Source: a virus
Taxonomy: Duplodnaviria > Caudoviricetes
Direction: 5' to 3' (one strand)
Length of the DNA stretch: 64,000 bases
Virus record (IMG/VR): IMGVR_UViG_3300033068_000943
Coordinates: 1-64,000 of that record
The position numbers and the translations under genes are program-made. Under the pieces are notes generated by a model, which searched no databases, was not told the DNA's origin, and saw only the letters and a list, made by a program, of their open reading frames with translations. Every line of letters begins with the position of its first letter. Within the stretch, counting starts at the first letter, position 1. This document shows, in pieces, positions 1 through 55,595 of this stretch.

Positions 1-167
1 CGGCTGCTGAGTCGGCGGCAGAGTCGGCTGCAAGGTCGGCTGCTGAGTCGGCTGCATGGTCGGCTGCATGGTCGGCTGCATGGTCGGCTGCTGAGTCGGC
101 GGCAAAGTCGGCTGCAAGGTCGGCTGCATGGTCGGCTGCATGGTCGGCCGCTGAGTCGGCTGCTGCG
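1..167 (+). repeat. 12-bp coding tandem repeat (TCGGCTGCATGG/TCGGCTGCTGAG variants)
   Basis: About 13 imperfect 12-nt units encoding SAAx. Confidence 0.9.
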
Positions 168-2770: not shown

Positions 2771-3100
2771 TTAGTGCTGATTGTTCGCTGCAACGCGCTC
2801 GACGAAGCGGAGACACACATCCTCACGCGCCGCATTGCGGCGAACAACAGCGCCAACATCCAGGCGATGACGCGCCCACAGAAGATTGACGCACTGGATC
2901 GAGTCGGTCACTCCGGGACACAGAGCCATCAATTGCGCGGGATCGCGTGGAAACGGCGCCATCTTCGGGATCGCTTCGCGCGCCCCTCGCCGGCACTCCG
3001 GCGGCGCCTTGGCAACTGGCAGTGTTGCGACCACGGGCACTTCAGTTGCACATCCAGGCAGCAGCAGCAAAACATAAACAAGGCACACCGCGCGAATCAT
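2771..3100 (-). CDS. Putative o-spanin (Rz1-like lipoprotein)
   Basis: MIRAVCLVYVLLLLPG-C lipobox; Pro/Cys-rich; overlaps the upstream i-spanin candidate. Confidence 0.6.
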   Translation of the reverse strand: MIRAVCLVYVLLLLPGCATEVPVVATLPVAKAPPECRRGAREAIPKMAPFPRDPAQLMALCPGVTDSIQCVNLLWARHRLDVGAVVRRNAAREDVCLRFVERVAANNQH

Positions 3101-3438
3101 CGCCCCGCCTCCCGCATCACCGCATTGAGCGTATCGATGCGCGCCTCCGTGAGCGGGCACGTCGCGTCGCTTTGTTTGGCGATGATCAATGCCGATTCGC
3201 TGGCCGCCGCATCCTGCATCGCCGCTTTAGTCTCGGCGGCGACGGCCGTCGCGCGCGCTACCTCAAGATCAGACTCCAGCGCGCGTATCTTGGCCGCCGC
3301 TTCGTCCGTCGCCTTGCGCACGGCGCGCTCCATGGCGGCCTGGAAATTCCCAGCCCGCCAATCCCATCCGACCTTGACCCCGACCCCGAACGCGAGGCTC
3401 AAGATCACGACCACTGCGCCAATTCCGCGAAGGTCCAC
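3097..3438 (-). CDS. Putative i-spanin (Rz-like)
   Basis: N-terminal TM, Ala-rich coiled coil, C-terminal Cys (ATCPL). Confidence 0.6.
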   Translation of the reverse strand: MDLRGIGAVVVILSLAFGVGVKVGWDWRAGNFQAAMERAVRKATDEAAAKIRALESDLEVARATAVAAETKAAMQDAAASESALIIAKQSDATCPLTEARIDTLNAVMREAGR

Positions 3439-3456
3439 GGCGCCCTCCTGTTGCGG

Positions 3457-3957
3457 CTATTGCAGACCGAGGAACTTCGACAGATTGAACTTGGCCGGCT
3501 CCGGCTCGGCCACCAACGGCTTCTTTGGAATAGCCGCCTTGCGGGCAACCTTTGGCGCCGCGTCCGCCGCCTTCGGCGGCGCATCCTTGGCGCGCTCAAG
3601 GGCATTCTCGGCCTCATAAGCGCGCTTCTCAGCCAAGGATACGGCGCGCTGCGCTTCGCGGAACTCAACCGTCAGCTTGTCGCGTTCGAGCGTGACTTTC
3701 GACAGGCTCGATTGCAGCGTGTGCGCCGGCCGCGCCCCCATCGCATGCCCGCCTAGGTACGCAGCGAACGCAACCGCAGCAATGATCGGATACGTGGCCG
3801 GCGCCGACAGCGCCGCCTTGGCTGATCTCCACAGCCCCGATACGGCCCACACGAGGCCATCTCTCGTCCACGACAAGGCCGATCCGCCAACGCTGACGAT
3901 GGCGTTTCCGGTCAACAGCGCCCACATGCGCGCAAGCAGTGCCGTCATCATCGTCAT
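3457..3957 (-). CDS. Membrane protein with coiled-coil tail (lysis accessory)
   Basis: PIIAAVAFAAYLGG TM then coiled coil; coupled to the endolysin stop. Confidence 0.55.
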   Translation of the reverse strand: MTMMTALLARMWALLTGNAIVSVGGSALSWTRDGLVWAVSGLWRSAKAALSAPATYPIIAAVAFAAYLGGHAMGARPAHTLQSSLSKVTLERDKLTVEFREAQRAVSLAEKRAYEAENALERAKDAPPKAADAAPKVARKAAIPKKPLVAEPEPAKFNLSKFLGLQ

Positions 3958-4868
3958 TTCGCGTCGCCCTTCAGTTGAGAGATGGTTTTTTTGTCGTTGG
4001 TGTGCCGGACCATCGCGAACAAGATGCACGCGATCGTGAGGCCGCCCAGGACGTAACTCAGATTGAGCTTGAGCATCCCGAACAGGCTTTGCACGGGATC
4101 GAGCTGCCCCCTCACGTCATCGACGACATCGGGCAGCGACGAGAACAGCGCCCCAGTCTTGTCCGCGATAAAGGCACCCGCGCCCGTCAGCAATGCCCAT
4201 ACCGATTTGGACTTGGCCGCCTCCTTGATGGAAGATGCCTCTTTCGGGGGCTCCGCTTTCGGCCACGTTGCCACCTCAGCGCGCGGATGATCATCGTCGA
4301 TCTCGTTGGCGTCGATCAGCGCGCGAAGCAACGCCATGCCTCCCGGCTGCGCAGAAACCGCAGTCGGCGACCACACGCCGTCCGCGACGTACTTCCCACG
4401 CTCATAAGCCGTCGTGAAGCTCCACAGATATGCGCTCGGCACCCCCTTGCGGTACGACCCGAAGCCGTTGAATTTCTCCAGACAGTACGCAATCCCCTCG
4501 ATCGACCAATCAGCGTTGCGATCAAGCCCATCATAGCGCAGCGCGTCCGCCGCGCTTTCCTCCCACGTCGCAAACGGCCCACGGCCCTTGGGAACCTGCA
4601 CCGTCTTGAGTGGCGCACCCTTCTTGTCCGTGAGAGGGTCGCCGTTATGGAGATGAGTCTTGAAGGAAAGGCCCGATTCCATGGCGTGAAGAATGCCGAT
4701 GACATACCATGGCGCGCCCGTCGTTGCGCTGACCGCCTCGTAGCGAGCGCGATTTGCAACGATCCGCCGCGCGGTCGCCGTCACCTCAGTCTTGCGTTCG
4801 GGGCGCAAGACCATCGACGCCCAAAGCGCCTTGTATTCCTTGCTCCGGCTCGCGATCGTGGTGGCCAT
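3954..4868 (-). CDS. Endolysin, lysozyme-family (COG5526-like), with C-terminal membrane segments
   Basis: RYEAVSATTGAPWYVIGILHAMES..HLHNGDPL..VPKGRGPFATWEESAADAL..EKFNGFG..SAYLWS..GKYVADG. Confidence 0.8.
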   Translation of the reverse strand: MATTIASRSKEYKALWASMVLRPERKTEVTATARRIVANRARYEAVSATTGAPWYVIGILHAMESGLSFKTHLHNGDPLTDKKGAPLKTVQVPKGRGPFATWEESAADALRYDGLDRNADWSIEGIAYCLEKFNGFGSYRKGVPSAYLWSFTTAYERGKYVADGVWSPTAVSAQPGGMALLRALIDANEIDDDHPRAEVATWPKAEPPKEASSIKEAAKSKSVWALLTGAGAFIADKTGALFSSLPDVVDDVRGQLDPVQSLFGMLKLNLSYVLGGLTIACILFAMVRHTNDKKTISQLKGDAK

Positions 4869-44070: not shown

Positions 44071-45801
44071 TTATACTGGATACAGCGGATCGCGTCGAGC
44101 GCCCTTGTGCTGCTGCCGGTCGCGCTCGGCCGCCGCCGCATCCTCTTTTCGGATGGCAAGCCCTCGATCTCGCAGGAATTTCAACGCCATCGTGATGCTG
44201 TCCACGATGTCGTCGTGCGCCGCCCTTGGAAACGACGACATGACGCGCATCGCGTCGTCTGCGTAATCCAAGAATTGCACGTTACCGTCGTCAGTTACCT
44301 CGGCCGGCGCGTAGATCATGCCATCCGTAAACAGGTCGACCACCGCATGCGCTCGCGCCCACTTGTCGCCTCTGATGTCGATCGCCTGGACGCCGTAGTC
44401 GCGTCCGGCGAATAACCTCTTGAGCGTCCGAATGACGTCCGGCGCGCGCGTCTTGTTCTCGACGATTAGTTGGTTGACCCGGCGGCGCTGACACGAGTAG
44501 TGCACCCACTCGACGAGTCCCCACCTCTCCTTGGCGCGGCGCTGGTAGACCGCTTCGCTCTCGCCGGGCCGCTTTTCGATCTCCCCTGACGACAGTTCAG
44601 CGAGGCGTTTTTGCCAAGCGTCGACGAGCAAGATGCGCCGCTGCTTGCTGTGCGGATCTTCGTACACCACCCAGATCGTGAGCGCCGAATAGTCGTTTTC
44701 CTCTTTTTCGCTGAAGGCCGTATCGAGCGATGCCAGCACGTAGATCGGCTTGACCTCCGGGCGGAACCGGATTGCCCCGCCGGCCCGCTCGATCTCATGC
44801 ACCTGCCACCAGTCGTCCTTGAAGATGCCGCCGCCGCGCGGCGTCGGGTTCTGCTGATACTGACCCGCCCACAGATATTGATACGCCCGGAAGGACGCGA
44901 GGGCTTGTGGGCTGAACCGCTCCGGCCACGCCAACTCGCCATCGAACTCGCGCGGATCAAGCCCTCCGTTCCATCCCGTATAGTGCGAGAAGTGCCTATT
45001 CGATTCGAACTCCATCGGGATCACGAGGTGGCAATACTCGTTGCCCAGATGCTTGGCCACAACGCCCGATGTGTCGTCCTCATGGACGCGCTGCATGATG
45101 ATGACGATGGCGTCCCGCTCGATATCGTTGAGGCGGTTCTGCATGCCTTCGCGCACCCAGTTGGTGACGCTCGCACGGGCTTCGGCGCTTTCCTGCGTCC
45201 CCTTGATCTTGTGCGGATCATCGAGAATGACGCGATGGCCGCGCTCGCCCGTGCCGACGCCTCCGAACGAGGTTGCGAACTTGTATCCGGTCTTGTTGTT
45301 GGTGACGCGGATCTTGCCGTCCCCGACGACATCGAAAACGTGCCCCCATAGCGCCCGATAATCCGCCGATGTAATCAGGTCGCGGAATTTGGCGTTGTCG
45401 CGCTGCGTGAGTTCCGGGGAGTAGGAGAATGTCACCGTGCGCAGATGTGGCATACCGCGCGGCCCCCACTCCCACGCCGGCCAAAAGACGTTTGTGGTCA
45501 GCGACTTCATGAATCCAGGCGGAACATTGGCAAGCAATCTGTTTAGCCGCTTTTTTCGCCCGTTTATCTCGACAGCATCGTCATTCGTGATCGCCTCAAG
45601 ATGCGCGCACAGACATGCGAGCGGCCACCCCTCGACGAATGGGTCAACAGGCTCAAGGACGTGCCAGAAATACCGGATGAACGCCATCAGGCCGCCGCGC
45701 GGCTCGGACTGGCGACGCCGCTCGGCTCGCATGGCGCGCTCACGCAGTGCGCGCGCCAGCGCAACGCGGCTTTCGCGGTCGACAACCTCGTCGTCGCTCA
45801 T
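44071..45801 (-). CDS. Terminase large subunit
   Basis: NVPPGFMKS (Walker A variant); GERGHRVILDDPH; IMQRVHEDD; GQYQQNP; SLDTA; FPRAAHDDIVDS nuclease motif. Confidence 0.95.
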   Translation of the reverse strand: MSDDEVVDRESRVALARALRERAMRAERRRQSEPRGGLMAFIRYFWHVLEPVDPFVEGWPLACLCAHLEAITNDDAVEINGRKKRLNRLLANVPPGFMKSLTTNVFWPAWEWGPRGMPHLRTVTFSYSPELTQRDNAKFRDLITSADYRALWGHVFDVVGDGKIRVTNNKTGYKFATSFGGVGTGERGHRVILDDPHKIKGTQESAEARASVTNWVREGMQNRLNDIERDAIVIIMQRVHEDDTSGVVAKHLGNEYCHLVIPMEFESNRHFSHYTGWNGGLDPREFDGELAWPERFSPQALASFRAYQYLWAGQYQQNPTPRGGGIFKDDWWQVHEIERAGGAIRFRPEVKPIYVLASLDTAFSEKEENDYSALTIWVVYEDPHSKQRRILLVDAWQKRLAELSSGEIEKRPGESEAVYQRRAKERWGLVEWVHYSCQRRRVNQLIVENKTRAPDVIRTLKRLFAGRDYGVQAIDIRGDKWARAHAVVDLFTDGMIYAPAEVTDDGNVQFLDYADDAMRVMSSFPRAAHDDIVDSITMALKFLRDRGLAIRKEDAAAAERDRQQHKGARRDPLYPV

Positions 45802-53315: not shown

Positions 53316-53389
53316 TGGCACCGGGAGCGGGAGTCGAACCCGCGCTTGCGGTTTTGGAGACCGCCGTGCTTCCGTAACACTTCCCCGAT
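53316..53389 (-). tRNA. tRNA-Trp(CCA)
   Basis: GCGGT-CT CCA AA-ACCGC anticodon arm; GGGTTCGACTCCC; G73 + CCA. Confidence 0.9.
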
Positions 53390-54429: not shown

Positions 54430-54696
54430 TTACTCATGCGGCGCCCGACGCCCCGAGCGTCGCGCGTATTTGATCCGCTCAAGCGCCACGATAAAAAGCG
54501 TAAAGTTGCTTTCAAGCGTCGCAAGCGACCCATGCGCGGTTCCCATCCATATTGCCTCATCTGCCGACGCAGCATGCCTTGGCCGGAAGCTGCGCGCGAT
54601 CTTCGCGCTACGCATCACAGCATCCCTGGCCTCGTGAAGGCTTGCCAGCATCGCCTCAACCTCATCGTCAGAGACACGTCCATCCGCATCAGGCAT
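54430..54696 (-). CDS. Hypothetical protein coupled to the release-factor gene
   Basis: GGAGG SD inside the RF 3' end; helical 88 aa. Confidence 0.55.
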   Translation of the reverse strand: MPDADGRVSDDEVEAMLASLHEARDAVMRSAKIARSFRPRHAASADEAIWMGTAHGSLATLESNFTLFIVALERIKYARRSGRRAPHE

Positions 54697-55369
54697 ACAA
54701 GTCCTCCAGATTCCCGGCCAGCACGTCGGCGAGCCGCGCCTTGGCGCCAGTCTTGTGGTCGGTCACGATCTCGTCTCGCACCCGGTACGTGCGGGTCTTA
54801 TCGCCGCGCATGCCTGAGCCCACCTGCCCCTTGCGATCCGATGCCGTGGCGAGGGCCGTCTGCTGCGCAACATGCGCCGCCACGCGGCCCTCAAGCGTCT
54901 CTCGCGCGATCTGGCGGTTGCGATGCTGCGACTTCGTGGCCGCCTTGGCCTCGATCCCTGTTGGCTTGTGTCGCATCACCACACACGATTCGGTCTTGTT
55001 TCGATGCTGGCCACCCGGCCCGCTGTCCATTGTCGTTCGCACCTCGATGTCTGCATCCCGCAGCCGGTACGCCGATCGCTCGCGCAACGCGAACACCGCG
55101 ACAGTGACGGTCGATGTGTGCACGCGCCCGGAGCGTTCCGTTGGGGGCACCCGTTGCCAGCGATGGCCGCCGCTCTCATTCAGCAGGCGCTTGGCGGCAA
55201 GATCATCCCCCTCGATGATCAGGACCAGTCAACTGCGGCCTTCGTCCTCGACATCGACGACCAATCCGTGTCGACGCGCATAGGCAAGATAGATAGCCGC
55301 CTGATCTCGAACCAAGAGCTTGGCGTCGTCGCCGCCCTCGCCGGGCCGGATTTCAATTGCGATTTTCAT
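54689..55369 (-). CDS. RF1-like peptide chain release factor lacking domain 1, with in-frame TGA at codon 47 (55229-55231)
   Basis: MKIAIEIRPGEGGDDAK..EGRS*LVLIIEG..ESGGHRWQRVPPTERSGRVHTS..SGPGGQHRNKTES..SQHRNR..GSGMRGDKTRTY..VTDH, all in one frame. Confidence 0.85.
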
Positions 55370-55557
55370 CGAACAGTCCTTTCCATGCGGGCCAGCTCGC
55401 GCATCACGGCATCCCGGACGACATCGGATTTGCTTACGAACTCGGGACGCGCGAGTGACGCCCTGAGTGCCCGGATACGCTCAATGGCACGAGCGAACTC
55501 GTCGTCCGACCGCATCATGAACGTCTTTGTGAGAAGCTTAGGTTTTGTGTTTGCCAT
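55366..55557 (-). CDS. Ribbon-helix-helix (CopG/Arc-like) regulator
   Basis: TFMMRSDDEFARAIERIR..SKSDVVRDAV; ATGA coupling to the RF start. Confidence 0.65.
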   Translation of the reverse strand: MANTKPKLLTKTFMMRSDDEFARAIERIRALRASLARPEFVSKSDVVRDAVMRELARMERTVR

Positions 55558-55566
55558 GGCCACAGC

Positions 55567-55595
55567 TATGTACTCCACGTCATGACGTCTTGCAA
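55567..55595 (-). promoter_or_regulatory. Sigma70-like promoter with palindrome in the spacer
   Basis: TTGCAA-N17-TACATA; spacer contains the perfect palindrome ACGTCATGACGT (55577-55588). Confidence 0.55.

Follow-up and report, generated by a model that had tools for sequence, protein, structure and literature searches.

A conserved internal UGA codon in a phage gene for an RF1-type release factor lacking domain 1

Why should a gene for a release factor carry a stop codon inside its own reading frame, and is that codon a regulatory device or a defect? The question is raised by a gene in the 64,000-nucleotide stretch of phage DNA analysed here (the window), which belongs to a virus record of 93,335 bp (62% G+C, CheckV completeness estimate 92%). 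The sequence agrees with the original prediction of one frame that starts at ATG 55369, passes through a TGA at codon 47 and, if that codon is read, gives a product of 226 residues; it is the only in-frame TGA before the terminal one, and we refer to it as the gate. The ORF list shows the gene in two pieces, a 46-aa front (55229-55369) and a 153-aa back (54689-55150). The predicted motifs EIRxGxGGDxA, PxT and GGQ were located intact, as EIRPGEGGDDA upstream of the gate and as PPT and GGQ downstream of it (Table 1). A megablast search of the release-factor region against GenBank phages gave no match.

Table 1. Positions of the release-factor gene, its parts and nearby features in the window
Feature	Position	Strand	Remarks
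Large terminase gene	44071-45801		
Phage tRNA-Trp, anticodon CCA	53316-53389	-	U11-A24 pair; about 1.3 kb downstream of the gate gene
88-aa ORF	54430-54696	-	without family; its ATG is 8 nt inside the end of the release-factor gene (ATGCCTGA overlap)
Release-factor gene	54689-55369	-	single frame; 226 sense codons if the internal TGA is read
Terminal stop	54689-54691	-	TGA, then T; overlaps the start region of ORF 54430-54696
Segment 2, codons 48-226	54692-55228	-	rest of domain 2/4, domain 3 and C-terminal part; model fits RF1
GGQ	55007-55015	-	residues 119-121
PPT	55139-55147	-	residues 75-77
Gate TGA, codon 47	55229-55231	-	context AGT TGA CTG; all 10 subclade sequences have a stop in this column of the alignment
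Segment 1, codons 1-46	55232-55369	-	start of RF domain 2 with EIRPGEGGDDA (residues 6-16); purifying selection
Upstream 70-aa ORF	55366-55578	-	its TGA overlaps the factor's ATG at 55369 (ATGA)

The ATGA overlap suggests that the release-factor gene is translationally coupled to the 70-aa ORF, as had been proposed, but the identification of that upstream ORF as an RHH gene found no support, the ORF having no significant Pfam or PHROG family (Pfam gave only a weak HRDC match, E 0.0078, and PHROGs nothing). Since there are overlaps at both ends of the factor gene, the 70-aa ORF, the factor and the 88-aa ORF make up a chain of overlapping cistrons leading into the tRNA cluster, and coupling probably operates within this chain.

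Whether the internal stop is kept in related genes was asked of the window's own subclade, from which 9 relatives were fetched (L001-L007, L009 and L084; 49-67% identity). All 9 have a stop at the window's gate column (8 TGA and, in L005, 1 TAG), giving 10/10 with the window counted (9 TGA, 1 TAG), so that the homologues neither carry a sense codon at this position nor leave the window's stop unique. Synonymous sites in the subclade are saturated (pS 0.6-1.0, Nei-Gojobori counts), and pN (0.17-0.5) is far below pS and similar on both sides of the gate; for the one unsaturated pair, L004 and L007, dN/dS was 0.12 upstream of the stop and 0.07 downstream. The comparison of dN/dS on both sides that the original prediction had recommended thus gives purifying selection upstream and downstream, and its argument that the codon is not a sign of decay holds. 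That every subclade member fetched has its stop at one and the same codon is far beyond chance; the gate stop is old, maintained by selection and functional rather than damage. The exceptional TAG gate of L005 (3139-3141 of that locus, AAT TAG CTG) is the only one among read-through-type members, and L005 has F rather than W at residue 71.

The product itself resembles RF1. Pfam identified PCRF (PF03462, E 1.3e-19, profile positions 101-194 of 194) and RF-1 (PF00472, E 6.8e-20), and the NCBIfam models RF1 (E 2e-57, model positions 106-334 of 347), RF2 (7e-31) and PrfH (1.8e-17) all matched below their curated cut-offs, the RF1 equivalogs scoring 194.8 against a cut-off of 400 (NF001859) and 185 against 423 (TIGR00019). 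The RF1 profile alignments run continuously across the internal stop, the best PDB sequence matches are RF1 chains (36-38% identical), and the AlphaFold model (pLDDT 88) fits ribosome-bound RF1 over the whole query with a TM of 0.85-0.87 and an rmsd of 2.6 Å, the Foldseek coverage of full-length RF1 being 0.56. As the match starts at RF1 model position 106 and covers 0.56 of the full-length protein, domain 1, the part of a release factor that contacts the L11 stalk and RF3, is absent; the original prediction had said as much, and the Pfam and NCBIfam RF1 alignments both lack the N-terminal part.

The family keeps GGQ and the RF1 residues Q72, P75, T77, E78, R82, H84, T85 and S86, with PPT present in 113/114 members; Q72, P75, T77 and T85 are those which read the second and third stop-codon bases in RF1, and residue 15 is the contact of the first base in RF1 structures. 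At positions where 107 cellular RF1 sequences are invariant the family has invariant changes of its own (E to D at 15, V to G at 68, V to I or W at 71), and there are more at further such positions (A/T to E at 11, V to R at 123, E to D at 190, N to R at 196). This recognition signature is the same whether the gate is TGA, TAG or TAA. Judged by its sequence, the product is a member of an RF1-derived subfamily without domain 1 and not an ordinary RF1, and it is likely to be specific for UAA and UAG. The RF1 specificity originally predicted from the PxT motif is backed by that motif and by the retained codon-reading residues, and weakened by the invariant changes at 15, 68 and 71.

Other assignments were tried and rejected. 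PrfH, of the RtcB2-PrfH ribosome-repair module, is of similar size and also lacks domain 1, but its model (TIGR03072) matches residues 65-197 only, at 63.6 against a cut-off of 166.65; the window protein, unlike PrfH, keeps the RF1 codon-reading loop, and an RtcB gene (PF01139) was not found in the whole 93-kb record, in a search whose controls were positive. The description of the factor as PrfH-sized is thus right as to size, but the resemblance is coincidental. An ArfB-type protein was rejected since that model matches residues 99-134 only (30.8 bits against a cut-off of 100) and domains 2/4 are present, and a selenoprotein gene since there is no conserved SECIS hairpin and homologous positions hold Trp or Phe, never Cys.

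Homologous DNA from further afield was drawn from three collections, and IMG/VR held 432 relatives of the window protein. Among the best 80 of these 432, one or two in-frame stops were seen in 75 and halves offset by +1 in 4, and the remaining one, L040, proved on inspection to have a frameshift cassette; the internal stops of the first 80 loci were TGA in 76 cases and TAG in 1. A sister clade has TGA at codon 36 in 84/84 distinct nucleotide sequences, and there the gate replaces a conserved Trp, as codon 36 is Trp TGG in 78/106 cellular full-length RF1 genes, while the short forms have TGA in 83 and TGG in 4. Some relatives carry, at the same two sites, a prfB-type +1 cassette made up of an SD-like sequence, a spacing of about 3 nt and CTT followed by TGA, TAG or TAA. 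Such a cassette lies at codon 36 or at the window's gate position in L008, L040, L057, L064, L091, L092, L099, L110, L111, L115, L136 and L161, for example GAGGT AGT CTT TGA C in L008, GGAGG CGT CTT TGA C in L040, AGGAG AGT CTT TGA C in L064 and, at 65% identity, GGGGG CAC CTT TGA C in L161; the stop is TAG in L092, L099, L111 and L115 and TAA in L110.

The short forms group together in a single clade (SH-aLRT 100, stem length 0.63) of the maximum-likelihood tree, which has 123 rows; 105/106 rows of this clade are gated, L081 alone being ungated, whereas 0/107 of the cellular RF1 genes fetched have an internal stop. The window is sister to L001, in a subclade where TGA read-through occurs together with three frameshift forms and a single case of TAG read-through. 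Gate types have replaced one another repeatedly, with hardly any loss, so read-through and +1 frameshift are interchangeable in evolution, and the presence of a prfB-type cassette at the same site in relatives marks the stop codon as a regulatory gate. Among gated relatives the terminal stop is TAA in 97, TAG in 4 and TGA in 7, the last always with a T after it. A protein search returned a few homologues of 224-231 aa and many of 162-197 aa which start just after the stop position.

How the two halves are joined in the window gene can be narrowed down. The +1 frame closes 8 codons on, there is no CUU slip codon and the downstream homology is in frame 0; moreover, no conserved in-frame start follows the gate, the next start being 4-148 codons away in the codon-36 clade. 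With the +1 frame closed and no conserved start after the gate, only in-frame read-through joins the halves. Nothing in the TGAC context or the RNA structure marks the gate TGA as leaky: no stimulatory fold was found at the window gate, where folding was no better than that of shuffled sequences (z -0.43), and RNAalifold gave no conserved pairs around the gate in the subclade. The original prediction had relied on UGA-C being a weak stop context, and this does not hold for the present phage, in which TGAC is the commonest genuine stop tetranucleotide (23/105 ORFs). No gate is directly followed by T (0/101), but this is attributable to protein constraint, since cellular RF1 genes behave likewise, with T after Trp36 in only 2/106. 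In the codon-36 clade (L010-L080) third-position entropy at codons +1 to +3, typically ACT ACC CGC, is 0.75-1.17 bits compared to 1.45 (sd 0.41) gene-wide, and this lower synonymous variation may point to a constraint that acts on the read-through context at the level of nucleotides.

We propose, as the probable explanation, that a programmed UGA recoding gate ties synthesis of the domain-1-less RF1-type factor to failing RF2-dependent termination. Host RF2 would bring most ribosomes to a stop at codon 47, with release of a peptide of 46 residues, while a minority would read the UGA in frame, most likely with host or phage tRNA-Trp inserting Trp, and go on to complete the 226-residue factor; the weaker RF2-dependent termination became, the more factor would be made, and this factor would be expected to act on UAA and UAG stops. 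Dependence on RF2 level, like the product's codon specificity and role, is an inference from the gene and its relatives. UGA is the stop codon which tRNA-Trp misreads, and read-through of the required kind has precedents: E. coli and Salmonella decode UGA as Trp with low efficiency, and in B. subtilis read-through climbs from 6% to 19-54% in prfB mutants (PMC7918605). The residue inserted at codon 47 is probably Trp, judging by the database proteins of 224-231 aa (P0002-P0005, P0008, P0011 and P0018) which have Trp at the gate column and are apparently ungated; these come from contigs of at most 2 kb and may be code-4 calls of TGA. Clearly ungated or frameshift relatives have Phe at the codon 47 position.

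The phage's own tRNA-Trp may be a near-cognate reader of the gate UGA. It has a U11-A24 pair, which is the pair created by the Hirsh suppressor mutation and occurs naturally in some bacteria. The tRNA-Trp genes of other phages share no common D-arm signature, and a tRNA-Trp gene lies beside the release-factor gene in 5/60 loci among about 250 tRNAs, which is no excess. At most loci the release-factor gene is in or beside a tRNA array, which fits a translation module.

The internal stop is real and conserved, and by analogy its regulation would follow the logic of prfB, here in a phage RF1-type gene. Like prfB, which encodes RF2, the window gene is a class-I factor gene with an internal UGA at which termination and recoding compete to set the output; it differs in being in frame and without a CUU slip codon, so that it depends on read-through and not frameshifting, and its product, being RF1-type, should not read UGA. 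In the window gene the gate is situated in domain 2, compared to domain 1 in prfB, where it is at about codon 26. Bacterial RF1 (prfA) is the best sequence and structure match of the factor and has PxT, GGQ and the Q/T/H decoding residues in common with it, whereas the window factor has no domain 1, falls below the equivalog cut-off, has family-specific substitutions and is encoded with an internal stop. In phage Qbeta the coat cistron has an in-frame UGA which is read at low frequency by tRNA-Trp to give the longer, essential A1 product. There read-through extends a functional protein at its C-terminus, whereas in the window it would be the on-switch for the only functional product, the 46-residue upstream product having no likely function.

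The closest viral parallel in the literature is the Mimivirus and Megavirus gene R726/mg280 (Jeudy et al. 2012), a class-I factor gene with a UGA-C read-through stop and a frameshift stop, for which a viral tRNA-Trp with a Hirsh-like A in the D arm is available and Trp was proposed as the inserted residue (PMC3521657). The window shares with it the UGA-C gate and a viral tRNA-Trp, in its case with U11-A24. The Mimivirus factor, however, is of the eRF1 type (eukaryotic/archaeal, omnipotent) and belongs to an amoeba virus, so that autoregulation is straightforward, whereas the window factor is a bacterial RF1 derivative without domain 1, from a phage, and most members of its family have one gate per gene. 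A 2025 survey reported programmed frameshifting in prfB and no convincing prfA case (PMC12421855), and the RF1 or RF2 genes of recoded phages are described as standard code without internal gates (10.1101/2021.08.26.457843). Full-text literature searches found no description of a gated phage RF1-type family.

The reason for coupling a UAA/UAG-reading factor to RF2 failure is not obvious, since most genes of the phage end in TGA, and the TAG and TAA gates found on the same factor in relatives mean that a sensor of RF2 alone cannot be the general rule. An alternative, which we consider unlikely, is negative autoregulation, in which the factor itself reads UGA, whether along with both other stops or because its specificity has shifted, and the gate works as in prfB with read-through in place of frameshifting. 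The gate architecture does copy that of autoregulatory prfB, close relatives have TGA, TAG or TAA gates together with identical recognition signatures, and the invariant decoding-site changes (15, 68 and 71) and the PPT of 113/114 members are unlike cellular RF1; but the residues that read the second and third bases in RF1 (Q72, P75, T77 and T85) are kept, there is nothing like the SPF motif of RF2, and sequence and fold are clearly nearer to RF1 than to RF2. A wider form of the same idea, that the factor has a broadened specificity for UGA as well as UAA and UAG, and that UGA, UAG and UAA gates are all negative autoregulation of an omnipotent bacterial-type factor, strikes us as improbable; if it were true, the phage would take over termination independently of host RF1, RF2 and RF3.

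Alternatively the stop could be a fixed attenuator which senses nothing and simply holds a factor that is toxic at high dose down to a few percent of the translation upstream. In B. subtilis fitness does fall when RF1, and RF2 in particular, is overexpressed (PMC12421855), the gene appears translationally coupled to its upstream ORF, and neither a special read-through context nor RNA structure was found. A weak start or a weak SD would do equally well, however, and the way in which UGA read-through and SD-stimulated CTT-stop cassettes have repeatedly replaced one another at the same sites suggests that selection acts on the stop codon as such; both devices, moreover, intrinsically compete with a release factor. 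We regard a simple attenuator as a rather improbable account of the gate.

It might also be supposed that read-through is not needed, the 46-residue peptide assembling with a separately initiated C-terminal fragment, and in many relatives gene callers do list the back half as a gene of its own. The next in-frame start, though, lies 4-148 codons off and is not conserved, and the window's first ATG, GTG or TTG after the gate is a GTG at codon 74, inside the recognition loop; relatives of the frameshift type, besides, join both parts covalently by design, making a split protein very hard to sustain. A similarly slight chance attaches to TGA being a sense codon throughout this phage, through code 4 or a suppressor tRNA, in which case there would be no gate at all. 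TGA does stand at Trp positions in the family, and recoded phages with RF1 are known, such as the Jade phages (10.1101/2021.08.26.457843). Against this, TGA terminates 43/66 greedy ORFs in the window and 63/105 in the 93-kb genome, ORFs cover about 90% under code 11, most family members have a single internal TGA per gene, at the same codon, and the window gene itself ends in TGA. The 93-kb phage has 7 tRNA genes (Met-cat, Trp-cca, Thr-tgt, Pro-tgg, Leu-tag, Gly-tcc and Gln-ttg), none with a UCA anticodon. TGA being an ordinary terminator, and a UCA tRNA being absent, the genetic code of this phage is the standard one, from which the internal TGA departs. Finally, the stop might be a nonsense mutation of recent date or an error of sequencing, or the gene might be decaying; a single TGG to TGA transition would suffice, and the record is that of an uncultivated metagenomic phage. 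Such an accident is scarcely credible given the same-codon stop in 9/9 subclade relatives despite saturated synonymous sites, the purifying selection on both sides and the 105/106 gated rows of the clade, and the related contigs, at 54-67% identity, are not copies of one sequence.

That recoding at an internal stop can regulate a release factor is textbook knowledge in the case of bacterial RF2, and among viruses there is one precedent, the eRF1-type gene of Mimivirus. The probable recoding gate described here would mean that a large family of phage RF1-type factors is controlled on this principle by three interchangeable devices, UGA at Trp36, UGA at codon 47 and the SD-CUU-stop +1 frameshift, a variety which amounts to a natural experiment on the replacement of read-through and frameshift gates by one another. 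It would also mean that standard-code phages manipulate or monitor termination, beyond supplying tRNAs, and it raises the question of what role a factor without the RF3-binding domain has in the infected cell. Gene callers split or truncate gated genes and the databases hold mostly fragments of 160-197 aa, so the family is systematically mis-annotated.

Some further observations were made at these loci. In L058 a tmRNA gene (3660-4123, tag peptide ANNEMFALVA) starts at the end of a UGA-gated RF1-like gene (3001-3666), placing two functions in ribosome termination and rescue next to each other in a phage. In L017 ARAGORN identified, at 1487-1563, a tRNA with a four-base anticodon (ccta), which could be a quadruplet or amber-reading tRNA; it lies about 1.4 kb upstream of an RF1-like gene with two in-frame TGAs, at codons 43 and 51. 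In the window, the tRNA-Trp has A8 and U14 where U8 and A14 are usual, and if the cat tRNA is assumed to be tRNA-Ile2 it is the sole one of the 7 tRNAs that is not explained as a reader of A-ending codons. The virus record begins (window 1-60) and ends (its last 60 bases) with the same short periodic G+C-rich repeat, with units like GTCGGCTGC and GAGTCGGCGGC, and its break probably falls within a terminal repeat or a gene of repetitive sequence.
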